A DNA stretch of 64,000 bases from assembly GCA_020853395.1 (NCBI GenBank), contig JADYYY010000008.1:21889-85888 (forward strand). Reading direction: 5' to 3'. Both the position numbers and the translations under genes were made by a program. This document shows, in pieces, positions 1,593 to 48,993 of the stretch (position 1 is the stretch's first letter; each line of letters opens with the position of its first letter). The notes beneath the pieces were generated by a model. It had not been told where the DNA came from, ran no database searches, and saw nothing but the letters and a program-made list of their open reading frames with translations. This DNA comes from Acidobacteriota bacterium. GTDB taxonomy: Bacteria; Acidobacteriota; Vicinamibacteria; Vicinamibacterales; SCN-69-37.

Positions 1593-1668
1593 TGGTGGAC
1601 CAGACCGGGATCGAACCGGTGACCTCATGAATGCCATTCATGCGCGCTCCCAGCTGCGCCACTGGCCC
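1593..1668 (-). tRNA. tRNA-Ala (anticodon GGC), CCA encoded
   Basis: The reverse complement folds as a cloverleaf: acceptor GGGCCAG/CTGGTCC with the G3:U70 alanine identity pair, D stem GCGC/GCGC, anticodon stem CATGA/TCATG with loop AT-GGC-AT, T arm ACCGG-TTCGATC-CCGGT, and a 3' ACCA end. Confidence 0.9.
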
Positions 1669-5820: not shown

Positions 5821-7245
5821 ATGGAGTCGCCCATCCTGGTCGCCGGCGCATGGACCACGACAGCCCACGCGCTCCCGGTGCGCAATCCCTACGACGACAG
5901 CCTGGTCGGATCCACCTTCCTCGCGGGCGAGGCGGAGTTCGAGACGGCCGCCGACGCTGCGGTGCGCACCCGCCGGGCCATGGCTGCGCTGCCAGCCTAC
6001 GAGCGCGCCGAGATCCTGCTGCGGGTCGCCGGCGTGCTCGGCCGGGAGCGCGAGGCTGTCGCCGCAACGCTCGCCGCCGAGGCGGGCAAACCGATTCGAG
6101 ACGCCCTGGGGGAAGTCGATCGCGCCGTGCTGACCTTTCGGGTCTCGGCCGAGGAAGCGCAGCGGATCGGCGGCGAGCTGATGCCGCTCGACGTCGTGTC
6201 GCGCGGCCGCCGCCGCCTGGCGATCACGCGCCGGGTACCGGTCGGCCCGATCGCCGGCATCTCGCCGTTCAACTTCCCGATGAACCTCGTCGCGCACAAG
6301 CTGGCGCCGGCGATCGCGGCAGGCAACCCCATCGTGCTGAAGCCGGCGACGCGCACGCCCCTCTCCGCGCTTGCGCTTGCGCGGCTGCTCGACGAAGCCG
6401 GCGTCCCGAAGGGTGCGTTGAGCGTGATGCCGATGGCACGCGAAGTCGGCGACCAGCTCGTGACCGACGCGCGTTTCGCGCTGCTGAGCTTCACCGGCTC
6501 GGCCGACGTCGGCTGGCAGATGAAGGCCAGGGCCGGGCGCAAGCGCGTCGTCCTCGAGCTCGGCGGAAACGCTGGCGTCATCGTCGATCGCGACGCCGAC
6601 CTCGATGCCGCCGTGGCCAAGATGGTCGCCGGCGGATTCGCCTATGCAGGCCAGAGCTGCGTGTCCGTGCAGCGCATCTACGTGCACGACGCGATCTACG
6701 ACCAGTTCGCGAGCCGTCTCGTCGCCGCCGTCGAACGGCTCAGCGTCGGCCCTCCCCTCGATCCGACGAGCGATCTGAGCTCGCTCATCGACGAACGCGA
6801 GGCCGCGCGCGTGCAGGCCTGGGTGGACGACGCGGTCGCGGCCGGCGCGCGCATCCTGACGGGCGGCCGCCGGCTCGGCCGCGCCGGCTTCGCGCCCACG
6901 GTGCTGAGCGACGTGCCCGCGACGTCCAAGGTCTGCGCCGAAGAGGCGTTCGCCCCGCTCGTGGGGCTCTACCGTTTCTCGGCATTCCGATCGGTGATCG
7001 AGGAGATCAACCGTTCCCGCTACGGCCTGCAGGCCGGCGTCTTCACGAACACCTTGCAGCACGCGCTGCTCGCCTTCGACGAGCTGGAAGTCGGCGGCGT
7101 CATTCTCAACGATACGCCGTCGTATCGCATGGACCAGATGCCGTACGGCGGCGTCAAGGACTCCGGCATCGGACGCGAAGGTCCGCGATTCGCGATCGAG
7201 GAGATGACGGACCTGCGGCTGCTCGTCATCAACCAGGACCGGTGA
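5821..7245 (+). CDS. NAD(P)-dependent aldehyde dehydrogenase
   Basis: 474 aa. Motifs FNFP, ELGGNA (catalytic Glu) and GQSC (catalytic Cys) are present. AAGGAG SD lies upstream. Confidence 0.9.
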   Translation: MESPILVAGAWTTTAHALPVRNPYDDSLVGSTFLAGEAEFETAADAAVRTRRAMAALPAYERAEILLRVAGVLGREREAVAATLAAEAGKPIRDALGEVDRAVLTFRVSAEEAQRIGGELMPLDVVSRGRRRLAITRRVPVGPIAGISPFNFPMNLVAHKLAPAIAAGNPIVLKPATRTPLSALALARLLDEAGVPKGALSVMPMAREVGDQLVTDARFALLSFTGSADVGWQMKARAGRKRVVLELGGNAGVIVDRDADLDAAVAKMVAGGFAYAGQSCVSVQRIYVHDAIYDQFASRLVAAVERLSVGPPLDPTSDLSSLIDEREAARVQAWVDDAVAAGARILTGGRRLGRAGFAPTVLSDVPATSKVCAEEAFAPLVGLYRFSAFRSVIEEINRSRYGLQAGVFTNTLQHALLAFDELEVGGVILNDTPSYRMDQMPYGGVKDSGIGREGPRFAIEEMTDLRLLVINQDR

Positions 7246-43231: not shown

Positions 43232-45611
<2,380 letters not shown>

Positions 45612-45663
45612 CGTCGCACGACGTCGCCGACCACAACTTTTGACAACGCACGTGAATTTGTGC

Positions 45664-45693
45664 TTGACAGGACGGAAGTCTCGTCCGTAATCT
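45664..45693 (+). promoter_or_regulatory. Near-consensus sigma70 promoter in the ddl-downstream intergenic region
   Basis: TTGACA (45664-45669), 18 nt spacer, TAATCT (45688-45693). Confidence 0.6.
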
Positions 45694-45699
45694 ACATCT

Positions 45700-45890
45700 T
45701 GCGTGAGAGCCATTCGCTCAGCCCAGTTATTGGGTACTGCGGAGACGAGCCAAGCGAGGCCTCTCCCGCGTGCGTTCTCGACGGAAGCCGGCGCTCGCCG
45801 GCGGCTGCGAACGCCGCGGCACGCCAGACGCGAGAAGGGTTCGGGCTCGCGAGCTATCGAGGTGCGGCATGGGTGCCGCGCTTTTTTTTT
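45700..45890 (+). ncRNA. Candidate structured small RNA or cis-leader of unrecognised family
   Basis: Bounded by the promoter above and an intrinsic terminator. GC-rich nested helices throughout. No SD-preceded ORF. Confidence 0.45.
45862..45890 (+). terminator. Rho-independent terminator
   Basis: GTGCGGCA-TGGG-TGCCGCGC followed by a run of 9 T. Confidence 0.8.
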
Positions 45891-46048
45891 GAGTTCTGAA
45901 TCGTCGGAGCGTCGCGCGTCCAACGCGCGCGCGTCCGCAACGATGCCAGGGAACTTCGTTTCAGGGTCGGGCAGACCGAGCGGTCGCGACGCCAGGACGA
46001 AGGTGAACGCCTGAGCAGTAGACCAAGCCGAAAGGGGGGACTGAGAGC

Positions 46049-46102
46049 ATGGCGAAGAAAGCAGCCAAGGGCGGAAAGAAGAAGGGCGGCAAGAAGCGGT
46101 AA
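46049..46102 (+). CDS. 17-aa highly basic micro-protein (MAKKAAKGGKKKGGKKR)
   Basis: GGGGGGA SD 8 nt upstream of the ATG. An in-frame TAG at 46019 prevents any longer form. A strong terminator follows 22 nt after the TAA. Below the ORF-track length cutoff. Confidence 0.45.
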   Translation: MAKKAAKGGKKKGGKKR

Positions 46103-46124
46103 GCACGCCCTCCCGCTAAGAAAA

Positions 46125-46150
46125 GGGGGCGAACGTCGCCCCCTTTTTTT
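46125..46150. terminator. Strong intrinsic terminator, potentially bidirectional
   Basis: GGGGGCGA-ACG-TCGCCCCC followed by T7 on the plus strand. The minus strand reads the same stem followed by TTTTCTT, 25 nt after the convergent gene's stop. Confidence 0.85.
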
Positions 46151-46174: not shown

Positions 46175-48298
46175 CTACCTGAACTCCACCCCGTCCCACA
46201 CGCGCACCCGCTGCACCACGTCCCACGGCGCGAGCTCGTCGAGCACCGGCCAGCCGTCGACGACGCGGCCGAACGCCGTGTACTTGCCGTCGAGGTGCGG
46301 CTGCGGCGAGAGCGTGACGAAGAACTGGCTGCCGCCGGTGTCGCGCCAGTCGAGCGCCATGCCGAGCGTGCCGCGCACATAGCGGGTCGCATTCAGCTCA
46401 TCGGGAATCGTGTAGCCTGGCCCGCCCTCGCCGTCACCGCGCGGGTCGCCGCCCTGCACGACGAACGCCGGCACCACGCGATGCAGCTTCATGCCGTCGA
46501 AGAACCCCGCCCGGGCCAGCTCGATGAAGTTCAGCGACGTCGCGGCCGCGTCCGTCATGTCGAGCTCGGCTTCGATCGTCCCGGCGCGCGTTTCGATGAA
46601 CACGTGCGGCGAGAACGCCGGGTGCAGCAGCGCATCCGACCCAAACCACTCGGCGGGCTGCCGCAGGCGAGCGGGGCGTTCGGGCGCCGCCGTCGCGTCG
46701 CCGAGGCCGCGGAGCAGCTCCGCCGTGCGCCATCGCACGGGCCACTCGCGATCTCCGAGACCGCGGCGGAGAATGGTCCGCGCTTCGTCGCTACCGTACG
46801 CGGCGAGCGCACCGAGCGCCGCCGCTCGGGCTGAGTAGGCGGCATCGCTCTGACCGCGGTCGTACGCGGTGACGAGGTGAGGCACGGCGCCCTCGAGCTC
46901 GATCTCGCCGATGAGCCGCGCGGCGGTCGCCCGCTCCACGAAGTCGGCCGCCTGAAGCGCGGTGAGCAAACGCGCGCCCAGATCCGGCGGCTTCACGACG
47001 GCCAACGTCTCGAGCGCGGCCGCGCGCACGCGCGCGTCGGCATCCTTCGCGAAGTCGTCCACCGCCGTGCGCACGAGGTCGGGCGAGAGCGTCCCGAGCA
47101 CGCGCGCGAGCGCCGCACGCACCGACCAATCCTTGTCGGGTTCCAGGCTGGCCAACACCACCAGGAAGGCGTCGGGCGCGACATGGGCGGCGGCGGTGAG
47201 CGCCGCCGCCCGCACGGCCGGCGCGGCATCGCTCACATAGTCGAGCAGCGCATCGAACGCGGGCGCGTACTGGGTCGCGCCGAGCGCCGTGATCGTCTCG
47301 AGGATCAGAACCGGAGGCGCCCCCGGCGCGTCGAGCAGCTCGATCAAAGGAACGGCGGCCTCACGCCCTCCCACCTGGCCGAGGGCTCGCACGGCGGCCA
47401 CACGGACTTTGACGTCAGCATCGCGCCGGGCGGCCAGCCCCTTGGCCACCGCAACGAGGCTCGGCTCCTTGAACGCGGCGAGGCCACGCAACGCGAACCC
47501 CGCGGTGTAGATGCCGGGTGTGCCCGCCAATGCGGACAGGGCCGGCACGGCCCGGCGGTCGGCGATCCGCTGCAGCGCGTACGCCACGGGCCACCAGCGC
47601 GAGACCGGCTGTCCGCGACCGTCGAGCGCGACGCCGGCAATCGCGTCGTAGCTCTGCAGCCGCACGAACGCGAACAGCGCGGCGCGACACACTTCGATCT
47701 CCGGCGCCTTCGGCGCCTCGTCATCGGGCTCGAGCGTCGCGATCCGCGCACTGCAGCCCGCCGCGGCCTGATAGATGGCGGGCACGGCCGACGCGGACCC
47801 GATCAGGCCGAGCGCGTCGATGGCTCGCGCGCGAACGACGAGCGATGGATCCGCCAGCGCGGTTTGCAGCGCGACCACGGCGTCGCGGGCGTCGGGTCCA
47901 ATCAGCCCCAGCGCGAAGGCGGCGGTCGCACGCACCGCCTCCTCGGGATCCTGCAGCGACGCGATCAACGCGGGCACCACGTTCGGCAGCGCGATGCGGC
48001 CGAGCGCGAGCACGGCACGGCGCCGCACGACGGGATCCGGATCGACGGCGAGCGCATCGAGCGCGGGCTCGCTCGCGGATCGAAATCGTGCCGGCCCCGG
48101 AACATCGGCGGCCGCGCTCCCCGGATCGCGAAGCTGCCTCTGCTGCTCGAGCCTGACGATCCAGCCGAGCTTCGTGTCGCGCGACACCGTGTGCTCGGGA
48201 ACGACGACGACCTCCGGCGCCGGCACGGACTTGCACGAAGCGGCGATGAGACACGCGAACGCGATGAGCGCGCGGCTCACGGCCGCAGGTCGCGCCAT
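46175..48298 (-). CDS. HEAT-repeat lipoprotein fused to a cyclophilin-type peptidyl-prolyl isomerase
   Basis: Lipobox LIAASC. About 500 aa of D..VR..A..ALG HEAT-like repeats. The C-terminal cyclophilin has FHRVVPAFVVQGGDP-like (HRVVPAFVVQGGDP) and GSQFFVT motifs. Confidence 0.85.
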   Translation of the reverse strand: MARPAAVSRALIAFACLIAASCKSVPAPEVVVVPEHTVSRDTKLGWIVRLEQQRQLRDPGSAAADVPGPARFRSASEPALDALAVDPDPVVRRRAVLALGRIALPNVVPALIASLQDPEEAVRATAAFALGLIGPDARDAVVALQTALADPSLVVRARAIDALGLIGSASAVPAIYQAAAGCSARIATLEPDDEAPKAPEIEVCRAALFAFVRLQSYDAIAGVALDGRGQPVSRWWPVAYALQRIADRRAVPALSALAGTPGIYTAGFALRGLAAFKEPSLVAVAKGLAARRDADVKVRVAAVRALGQVGGREAAVPLIELLDAPGAPPVLILETITALGATQYAPAFDALLDYVSDAAPAVRAAALTAAAHVAPDAFLVVLASLEPDKDWSVRAALARVLGTLSPDLVRTAVDDFAKDADARVRAAALETLAVVKPPDLGARLLTALQAADFVERATAARLIGEIELEGAVPHLVTAYDRGQSDAAYSARAAALGALAAYGSDEARTILRRGLGDREWPVRWRTAELLRGLGDATAAPERPARLRQPAEWFGSDALLHPAFSPHVFIETRAGTIEAELDMTDAAATSLNFIELARAGFFDGMKLHRVVPAFVVQGGDPRGDGEGGPGYTIPDELNATRYVRGTLGMALDWRDTGGSQFFVTLSPQPHLDGKYTAFGRVVDGWPVLDELAPWDVVQRVRVWDGVEFR

Positions 48299-48354
48299 GG
48301 CCGTATGGTAGCAGCGCGCGACGGGCCACGCCGCTGCTATACTCCGCGGCCAGC

Positions 48355-48993
48355 TTGGACTTCCGTTACCTGGCCATCGAGGGCCCGATCGGATCCGGGA
48401 AGACCGCACTTGCGAGGCGTCTCTCGGCCCACCTGGACGCGTCGGCCGTGCTGGACGAGCCCGACAATCCGTTTCTGCCGGACTTCTATGCCGGACGCAG
48501 CGGCGCGGCCTTCCAGGCGCAGCTCTTCTTCGTCCTGGCGCGCCACCGCCAACTGCTCGCCCTTCGACAGCGCGATCTGTTCAGCCAGGTCACCGTGTGC
48601 GACTTTCTCTTCGAGCGCGATCGCGTCTACGCGTTCGTGAACCTCGACGACAACGAGCTCTTCATCTATCAGCGCCTCTACGACCTGCTCTCCCGCGACG
48701 TCGTCGCTCCGGACGTCGTCATGTACCTGCAGTCGCCGACCGACACCCTGGCGCGCCGGCTCCGCGAGCGCGAGCGGCGCGCCGCCGATCCTCAGATCGT
48801 GCCGGACGAGGCGTACCTCGCCGAGCTCAACGAGGCCTACACGCACTTCTTCTTCCACTACACGGCCACGCCGCTGCTCGTCGTCGAAACGTCCCAGATG
48901 GACCTGTCGTGGGGGGACGACACGGTGGAGGAACTGCTGCGACAGCTTCGCGGGATGACGCGGGGAACCCGGTACTACGTGCCGAGGGCGTAG
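48355..48993 (+). CDS. Deoxynucleoside kinase family protein
   Basis: P-loop IEGPIGSGKT, ERD motif FERDRVYA and LRERERR lid. TTG start. Confidence 0.8.
   Translation: MDFRYLAIEGPIGSGKTALARRLSAHLDASAVLDEPDNPFLPDFYAGRSGAAFQAQLFFVLARHRQLLALRQRDLFSQVTVCDFLFERDRVYAFVNLDDNELFIYQRLYDLLSRDVVAPDVVMYLQSPTDTLARRLRERERRAADPQIVPDEAYLAELNEAYTHFFFHYTATPLLVVETSQMDLSWGDDTVEELLRQLRGMTRGTRYYVPRA

Follow-up and report, generated by a model that had tools for sequence, protein, structure and literature searches.

The stretch of 64,000 nucleotides (nt) analysed here, in the following called the window, stems from an Acidobacteriota bacterium (GenBank assembly GCA_020853395.1, contig JADYYY010000008.1, positions 21,889 to 85,888) and carries, between the gene ddl and a convergent gene encoding a HEAT-repeat and cyclophilin protein, an open reading frame (ORF) of only 17 codons, the product of which consists of 8 Lys, 1 Arg, 3 Ala and 4 Gly residues in addition to the initiator Met. 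An earlier note made from the sequence alone had described this ORF as a hidden micro-gene with its own Shine-Dalgarno sequence and terminator, and its start and stop codons, its composition, the in-frame TAG upstream of the ATG (46019–46021) and the hairpin with seven T residues that begins 22 nt past the stop were all confirmed in the sequence (Table 1). A six-frame scan of the 64 kb for ORFs of 8–45 codons with at least 25–30 % Lys and at least 70–80 % K, R, G or A returned this ORF only.

The GGGGGGA motif noted before the ATG is present, but its complementarity to the ribosome extends further than had been claimed, with GAAAGGGGG (46030–46038) being able to form a 9-nt pairing with the usual 3′ tail of the 16S rRNA. 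This pairing was counted by eye with one G-U pair included, and the tail is the generic one, the window holding no 16S gene. The GC stem of the terminator has 8 bp and encloses a loop of 3 nt, and in the predicted fold the hairpin at 46125–46143 is embedded in a 15-bp stem extended by A/U pairs. Calling it the strongest terminator in the window was an overstatement, as with −15.5 kcal/mol it ranks third by hairpin energy among the six hairpin-plus-T-run sites of the window; none of the others, however, combines so compact a GC stem with a long T tract. A consensus terminator scan of the window did not list 46121–46150, although the stated rules of the scan fit this site. Because A4 and T7 tracts flank the stem, the terminator is usable in both directions and probably also serves the convergent HEAT-cyclophilin gene, the stop codon of which lies 25 nt away.

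Table 1. Features of the micro-gene unit and its two neighbouring genes, in window coordinates.
Feature	Position	Strand	Details
Micro-gene, copy-B type	46049..46102	+	ATG 46049-46051, TAA 46100-46102; product MAKKAAKGGKKKGGKKR, read from the sequence
Extended Shine-Dalgarno sequence	46030..46040	+	GAAAGGGGGGA; includes GGGGGGA (G6 46034-46039, A 46040), spaced 8 nt from the ATG
Intrinsic terminator	46121..46150	both directions usable	A4, GGGGGCGA 46125-46132, ACG, TCGCCCCC 46136-46143, T7 46144-46150
Leader of copy B	45891..46029	+	small conserved hairpin GACC-GAGC-GGTC at 45974-45985
Conserved putative promoter	45640..45699	+	T-rich stretch, TTGACA 45640-45645, core TTTGTGCTTGACA-N18-TAATCTACATCT 45664-45699
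Slot A (apparent remnant)	45700..45890	+	leader start GCTCAGCCCA...; no Lys-rich ORF over about 190 nt; terminator hairpin at the end
Slot A terminator	45862-45890	+	GTGCGGCA/TGGG/TGCCGCGC 45862-45881, T9 45882-45890; −13 kcal/mol
ddl	44451-45611	+	upstream of the unit
HEAT-repeat and cyclophilin gene	46175-48409	-	stop codon 46175-46177; convergent to the micro-gene

For comparison we assembled 80 loci around relatives of ddl from species-representative genomes. The ddl of the window is at most 67 % identical to that of any of these loci, its nearest relatives being those of Vicinamibacterales and other subdivision-6 Acidobacteriota. Micro-ORFs downstream of ddl were located by a composition-only scan as well as by a start-motif scan, yielding 55 copies at 35 of the 80 loci, which lie on the ddl strand in 34 cases and are inverted in one (L019). 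All 55 copies begin with MAKK, 53 end with KKR and the remaining two with KKK, and every one is directly followed by TAA or TAG. Their lengths range from 14 to 20 amino acids (aa), except for one case each of 26, 35 and 41 aa. A frame-agnostic DNA pattern, ATGGCNAARAAR-N18-42-AARAARCGNTAR, was furthermore used to scan metagenome contigs and gave, out of 120 contigs, about 65 further loci with a GC content of 0.6–0.7 and the same features. The family comprises 129 unique coding sequences. By these comparisons the micro-gene is a member of an unannotated family of the form MAKK-[K/A/G/T]n-KKR that spans Vicinamibacteria-type Acidobacteriota, represented here mostly by soil-type metagenome contigs. 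At ddl loci of Terriglobia, subdivision 13 and other phyla, no micro-ORF was found within 4 kb. Two of the metagenome-assembled genome contigs with a Vicinamibacterales-type ddl and micro-gene unit are labelled Bifidobacteriaceae (L019) and Acidimicrobiia (L030) and are probably mis-binned.

Several independent patterns point to selection on an encoded peptide. In 127 of 128 family matches to the DNA pattern the spacer length is divisible by three, compared with 25, 27 and 8 unrelated matches with residues of 0, 1 and 2 modulo 3, respectively, and the entropy of the alignment columns is about 0.22, 0.35 and 0.85 for the first, second and third codon position. The terminal Arg is written as CGG, CGC, CGT, AGA or AGG, thus switching between the CGN and AGR codon families, and the exact window peptide MAKKAAKGGKKKGGKKR is encoded by 11 different nucleotide sequences. 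Both copies of the micro-gene are present in 20 of the 35 genomes, mostly encoding an identical peptide. Among genomes with two copies of equal length, 46 synonymous nucleotide differences between the copies stand against 5 non-synonymous ones, all five of the latter being located in the last K/R codon; by arithmetic from the codon table, random change would be expected to give about 23 % synonymous differences. Taken together, we consider it almost certain that the micro-gene is a genuine, translated gene with a 17-residue product under selection at the protein level. The claim of a hidden micro-gene with Shine-Dalgarno sequence and terminator of its own is borne out by conservation in the ddl-downstream region of the relatives, as frame, start, KKR-stop, Shine-Dalgarno sequence and terminator are kept there and the changes are mostly synonymous. 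If anything, the finding had been understated, since the comparison reveals a new and widespread family of unannotated micro-proteins, the locus of which has an unusual two-module layout. An N-terminally extended reading from a GTG, MKGG(I/T)..MAKK, which exists at some loci, was rejected, as it corresponds to the Shine-Dalgarno sequence read in frame and is unconserved.

In eight genomes (L002, L005, L014, L020 and L028–L031) the A and B peptides are identical within the genome and differ between genomes, with the two copies differing at 2–7 synonymous sites. Such a pattern points to concerted evolution with subsequent silent drift or, alternatively, to selection that keeps the two products the same.

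As seen in the alignments, the micro-gene belongs to a larger conserved unit, which the earlier note had not noticed; in the window this unit begins at about position 45640, and in its full form it consists of a promoter, a leader, copy A, terminator A, a second leader, copy B and terminator B. The promoter core occurs once in the window, with no occurrence expected in shuffled sequences even if three mismatches are allowed, and exactly once, with no mismatch, in each of 27 related loci. It is always located upstream of the micro-ORF unit in the alignments and is far better conserved than ddl. Because its −35 and −10 boxes are near consensus, the core element would represent a sigma-70-type promoter. 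It is followed by leader A of about 105–120 nt, the first approximately 45 nt of which are nearly invariant. This leader contains a hairpin, GGGTGG/CCCACC, with the loop GCTCAGC being complementary to a GCTGAGC located just before the Shine-Dalgarno sequence. A short upstream ORF at the 5′ end of leader A, ATGAGGGTGG..., was discarded, its ATG being missing in L002, L011 and L025. Copy A is preceded by an AGGAGG Shine-Dalgarno sequence, and its terminator, GGGG(T/G)G...C(A/C)CCCC with a T-run, follows 15–21 nt past the stop.

The leader of copy B, about 110–210 nt long in the family, spans the region between terminator A and the start of copy B. In an alignment of 21 B leaders, the columns of its small hairpin read GACC/GGTC in the window, as opposed to TGCC/GGCA in the majority of loci, and for each pair there are one to two sequences in which both sides change while the pairing is kept. 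For a CTCGC segment of this leader that could sequester the Shine-Dalgarno sequence by pairing we observe one-sided changes only, and this pairing is weak in the window, where the fold has a z-score of −0.9. The copy-B Shine-Dalgarno consensus of the family is GAAGGGGGGGAT, a motif kept in 31 of 31 copy-B sequences, and in nearly all relatives copy B is followed by GGGGGCG...CGCCCCC and a T-run 19–28 nt past the stop.

Slot A, as we call the segment that takes the place of copy A in the window, aligns with L002 and L020 over their leader, copy-A ORF and first terminator. The Lys-rich ORF is missing from slot A in the window as well as in its nearest relatives L001 and L033 and in L007, L018 and L022, with the promoter being kept, and the fold of the whole slot A segment is unremarkable (z = −1.6). 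Slot A thus looks like a decayed first copy, the lineage of the window having lost the copy-A ORF and retained copy B, and the window would offer a view of a micro-gene decaying next to a promoter that remains intact. Alternatively, slot A could be a small non-coding RNA derived from the micro-gene mRNA. A 40-aa ORF within slot A (45770–45892) was rejected, as it has no Shine-Dalgarno sequence, crosses the terminator and is unconserved in L001 and L033. Other single-copy lineages (L013, L015, L021, L032 and L036) have the promoter fused directly to the B leader.

The gene order around the unit is stable among the relatives and comprises ddl, in many loci a TPR gene, the micro-ORF unit and the convergent HEAT-cyclophilin gene, with the downstream arrangement matching that of the window in L014, L020, L029, L066 and L146. 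A functional tie to ddl was rejected, because the TPR gene intervenes between ddl and the unit in many loci and the adjacency looks like plain synteny. None of the neighbours, be it ddl, the TPR gene or the HEAT-cyclophilin gene, suggests a function for the micro-gene.

Database searches yielded no significant match for the family. The window peptide of 17 aa is below the length limits of family scans, and low-complexity filters lower the sensitivity for such compositions; six longer members of 20–41 aa were compared with NCBIfam and Pfam at E ≤ 10, which returned neither bS22, bL37, Thx nor any other ribosomal family and only weak, non-significant matches with E of at least 1.2. A profile built from 29 members had no match among all PDB chains at E ≤ 10. 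These results agree with the earlier note, which had claimed no more than compositional resemblance, without homology, to tiny basic ribosomal or nucleoid-associated peptides. Ten variants of 20–41 aa, including N-terminally extended readings, are missing from a collection of 15 billion proteins, and of the 8000 word candidates that the 41-aa variant produced in a homology search, none scored at E ≤ 1. Rfam 15 at gathering scores yielded no match for the unit in the window and none in 16 related loci, and a permissive scan produced sub-threshold matches only, driven by the terminator hairpin; the sole Rfam match at gathering score in the whole window is a tRNA (1596–1668, minus strand). Eight-residue strings of the peptide had no match in the literature, topic searches returned nothing on the family, and an exact look-up of the window ddl product matched no contig. 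As far as the resources searched show, with queries of 17 aa falling below the length limits of homology searches, the family is unannotated and undescribed.

The peptides of the family consist of 49 % K, 25 % A, 11 % G, 5.5 % R and 2 % T, encoded in genomes of 64–70 % GC, with R occurring essentially at the final position only. In such GC-rich genomes, Arg codons would have been the cheap choice if nothing but charge were at stake, yet Arg appears only at the end. GG and AA interchange freely at the same positions, and the length drifts by whole K-x-x units, in some cases expanding to (KKAA)n or PKKKAAKKK repeats, as in the variants MAKKKAAKKKAAKKKAAPKKK... and MAKKAKKAAKKAAKKTAKKR and in the 41-aa form with PKKKAAKKK repeats. 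Such a peptide would be an intrinsically disordered lysine polycation that binds a polyanion electrostatically. Nucleic acid in general, that is nucleoid DNA or RNA, would be the preferred partner, the peptide resembling a free segment of histone H1, of the HupB tail or of the (KKAA)n type found in AlgP. Because of the consensus promoter, the long Shine-Dalgarno pairing, the compact terminator and the frequent duplication, the product is likely to be very abundant, and the conserved leaders probably control its translation.

The closest known counterparts of this composition are Hc2, AlgP and the C-terminal tail of mycobacterial HupB, all of which share short K/A(/P/T) repeats such as KKAAKK and PKKKAAKKK with the family. 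The repeat number of Chlamydia Hc2 varies between strains and species (PMC2848022), and the lysine/alanine repeats of Pseudomonas AlgP are expected to form a disordered polycation that binds DNA or polyphosphate (PMC9239181). Short-period Lys/Ala repeats of variable number, which typify the H1-like proteins Hc2 and AlgP (PMC2848022, PMC9239181), are found in the family as well. The known proteins differ in being 100–350 aa long or tails on a folded domain, whereas the micro-gene encodes a free peptide of 14–20 aa with fixed MAKK and KKR ends; the family, at 14–41 aa, stays below the more than 100 aa that characterise H1-like proteins and is not recognised with significance by an H1-like model (E = 2.5). 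Because the charge carried almost entirely by Lys, the GG/AA exchanges, the length drift and the repeats match Hc2 and AlgP, we prefer to see the peptide as a free binder of nucleoid DNA, RNA or polyphosphate that resembles an H1 tail, rather than as a component with a fixed, stoichiometric position in the ribosome. With the reality of the gene counted in, we regard this proposal as about evenly poised between right and wrong.

A number of observations weigh against this proposal. A specific binding pocket would likewise account for the strict MAKK and KKR ends and for the near identity of the peptide among many species, and to our knowledge the experimentally characterised bacterial peptides of such size and charge are all ribosomal. 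The only H1-like match, to NF038053 (hist_H1_lk_Burk), was obtained with the 41-aa variant alone and reached 8.3 bits against a cut-off of 80. The helices of leader A are 92–93 % pairable but too invariant for convincing covariation. High expression in the window genome is itself an assumption, as there a strong T9 terminator separates the conserved promoter from copy B and no sigma-70-like promoter was detected between this terminator and copy B (45891–46029). Transcription of the window copy B would require either read-through of the T9 terminator or an unrecognised promoter, with RNA processing representing a further option.

Extending the polycation proposal to the whole locus, we tentatively suggest that Vicinamibacteria use one or two dedicated, differently led modules to make a single oligolysine-like product of 14–20 residues, which would be the smallest dedicated nucleic-acid-binding protein known from bacteria. 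It might act as a kind of "protamine" or H1 tail on nucleoid, RNA or polyphosphate, or else be a new ribosomal component, and might be autoregulated via its conserved leaders, including the candidate pairing of the leader A loop with its downstream complement. As a whole, this scenario is rather doubtful.

The most serious rival assigns the peptide to the ribosome, as a lineage-specific micro-protein that occupies an rRNA pocket in the style of bS22, eL41, bL37 or Thx, with the leaders exerting autogenous translational control. Many ribosomal-protein operons are under control of this kind, and the leaders of the micro-gene unit are structured and conserved. Furthermore, the peptide is tiny, more than 50 % basic, equipped with strong expression signals and invariant at its MAKK and KKR ends, and unannotated ribosomal proteins of 24–33 aa have repeatedly been discovered by cryo-electron microscopy (cryo-EM) alone. 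One example is bS22, known from Mycobacterium, Flavobacterium and Borrelia, which was found only by cryo-EM, consists of 61 % K/R in Borrelia and is predicted in further phyla (PMC10618245), another is the 24-aa protein bL37, which is restricted to Actinobacteria (PMC5876184). Like the micro-gene product, bS22 and eL41 are very short, over half basic, encoded by stand-alone genes and routinely missed by gene callers. However, bS22 is a protein of about 30–33 aa rich in both Arg and Lys that sits as a bent helix within a defined pocket of the 16S rRNA and is highly conserved in sequence, whereas the peptides described here have 14–20 aa, carry Lys except for the final Arg, are filled up with Gly and Ala and vary in length. 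bL37 and Thx of Thermus, which are bound to rRNA, are likewise basic, lineage-restricted micro-proteins (PMC5876184), but they contain Arg, His and aromatic residues and have fixed lengths.

The rRNA-pocket reading is disfavoured because the micro-gene product behaves unlike peptides shaped by such a pocket, as bS22 and bL37 combine an Arg-rich composition with a helical structure and a fixed length (PMC10618245, PMC5876184). Nearly free of Arg, the peptide contains no aromatic or hydrophobic residues at all. Within the lineage its length varies (14–20, 26, 35 and 41 aa) and the GG/AA interchange argues against a defined helix, while a range of 14–41 aa that includes repeat expansions is hard to fit into one fixed pocket. 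The lack of matches to ribosomal family models and PDB chains points in the same direction, as does the position of the gene, which is unlinked to ribosomal-protein operons and surrounded by ddl, TPR and HEAT-cyclophilin genes. All in all, we hold a place in the ribosome to be unlikely.

It is less probable still, and in our view improbable, that translation of the Lys codons rather than the peptide is what matters, with the ORF sensing Lys-tRNA or ribosome availability or serving as a ribosome-loading device that controls read-through of terminator A into module B or RNA stability. The architecture of the two-copy loci, in which a terminator comes 15–21 nt after ORF A and precedes a second module, would suit such a device, as would the unusually long Shine-Dalgarno pairing and the occurrence of Lys-rich micro-ORFs in true leader positions elsewhere, namely before secA and before an ornithine/diaminopimelate (Orn/DAP) decarboxylase gene (see below). 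The leader peptides trpL and hisL are also encoded by tiny ORFs enriched in one codon type with an intrinsic terminator close behind. They differ from the micro-gene in that the latter has no co-directional gene past its terminator, no predicted antiterminator alternative and purifying selection at its non-Lys positions. Only the terminator and the convergent gene lie beyond copy B, both in the window and in the relatives, and because of this convergent gene the earlier note had been right to exclude a Lys leader peptide acting by attenuation. The gene that ORF A would regulate is moreover a second copy of the same peptide, and purifying selection extends to the terminal Arg, which is kept across the switch of codon families. 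The folds of the window and of the leader consensus offer no terminator/antiterminator alternative, although absence from such predictions weighs little.

Very improbable is an element that acts at the RNA level with the ORF being incidental, for instance a small RNA of the Hfq type in which the AAG repeats serve as (ARN)n sites. The ARN motif is established for the distal face of Hfq, and AAG and AAA triplets fit it; in addition, the predicted transcript ends in a U-tailed hairpin, conservation of the promoter and of the first approximately 45 nt of leader A exceeds that of synonymous sites in the ORF, and slot A of the window retains promoter and terminator without an ORF. The entropy at codon positions, the maintained frame, the ATG at a fixed distance from the Shine-Dalgarno sequence, the stop directly after KKR and the CGN/AGR switching, however, are signs of selection at the protein level, and Rfam recognised no RNA family at gathering thresholds in the window or the 16 loci. 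Given the very conserved leader, a dual function of RNA and peptide is possible. A chance ORF in an intergenic region has a practically negligible probability, since, short as the ORF is and free of stops as purine-rich AAG sequence is in all frames, it is the sole such ORF in six frames of 64 kb and it is conserved together with its Shine-Dalgarno sequence, start, stop and terminator across 35 species-level genomes as well as about 65 of the 120 metagenome contigs.

Vicinamibacteria (Acidobacteria subdivision 6) are common in soil and hardly studied at the molecular level. The micro-gene was missed by all annotations checked despite featuring some of the strongest expression signals of its region, and with 14–20 codons the family lies under the size range of nearly all small-protein catalogues. 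Should the product prove to be a counter-ion of nucleoid or RNA or a ribosomal component, the lower size limit of such proteins would be extended, and the peptide would represent a simple, synthesisable test molecule. The paralogues, which encode identical peptides by different codons, also make the locus a clean case for testing, by comparison, how ORFs of fewer than 20 codons are called.

The metagenome scan additionally returned similar but distinct Lys-rich micro-ORFs in other contexts. An identical micro-ORF, MAKKRKAAKKKKR, is present in L101 (7576–7617, minus strand), L110 (12642–12683, minus strand) and L106 (1909–1950, minus strand) at a GC content of about 0.56 and without an obvious Shine-Dalgarno sequence. 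In L101 and L110 it is located 105–130 nt upstream of secA on the same strand, making it a possible secA leader ORF of another lineage. L122, a contig with a GC content of 0.47, encodes MAKKKKTTKKKTAKKKKKKR (7062–7124, minus strand) behind a TTGACA promoter box and a 12-nt perfect Shine-Dalgarno sequence, AAAGGAGGTGAT. As this ORF lies about 300 nt upstream of and on the same strand as a gene for a pyridoxal-phosphate-dependent Orn/DAP decarboxylase, it may be a genuine Lys-codon leader. A different arrangement along these lines is seen in another high-GC lineage, represented by L198 (9357–9487, plus strand) and L105 (355–485, minus strand), where a gap of only about 50 nt separates two Lys-rich micro-ORFs, MAKKKAKKKGKKR and MAKKKATKKKKR. 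Both have a very long Shine-Dalgarno sequence of 13 nt, AGAAAGGAGGTGA, the pair of L198 being located between an uncharacterised gene adjoining relA/spoT and recG. Tiny oligolysine ORFs may hence be more widespread and heterogeneous in their role.

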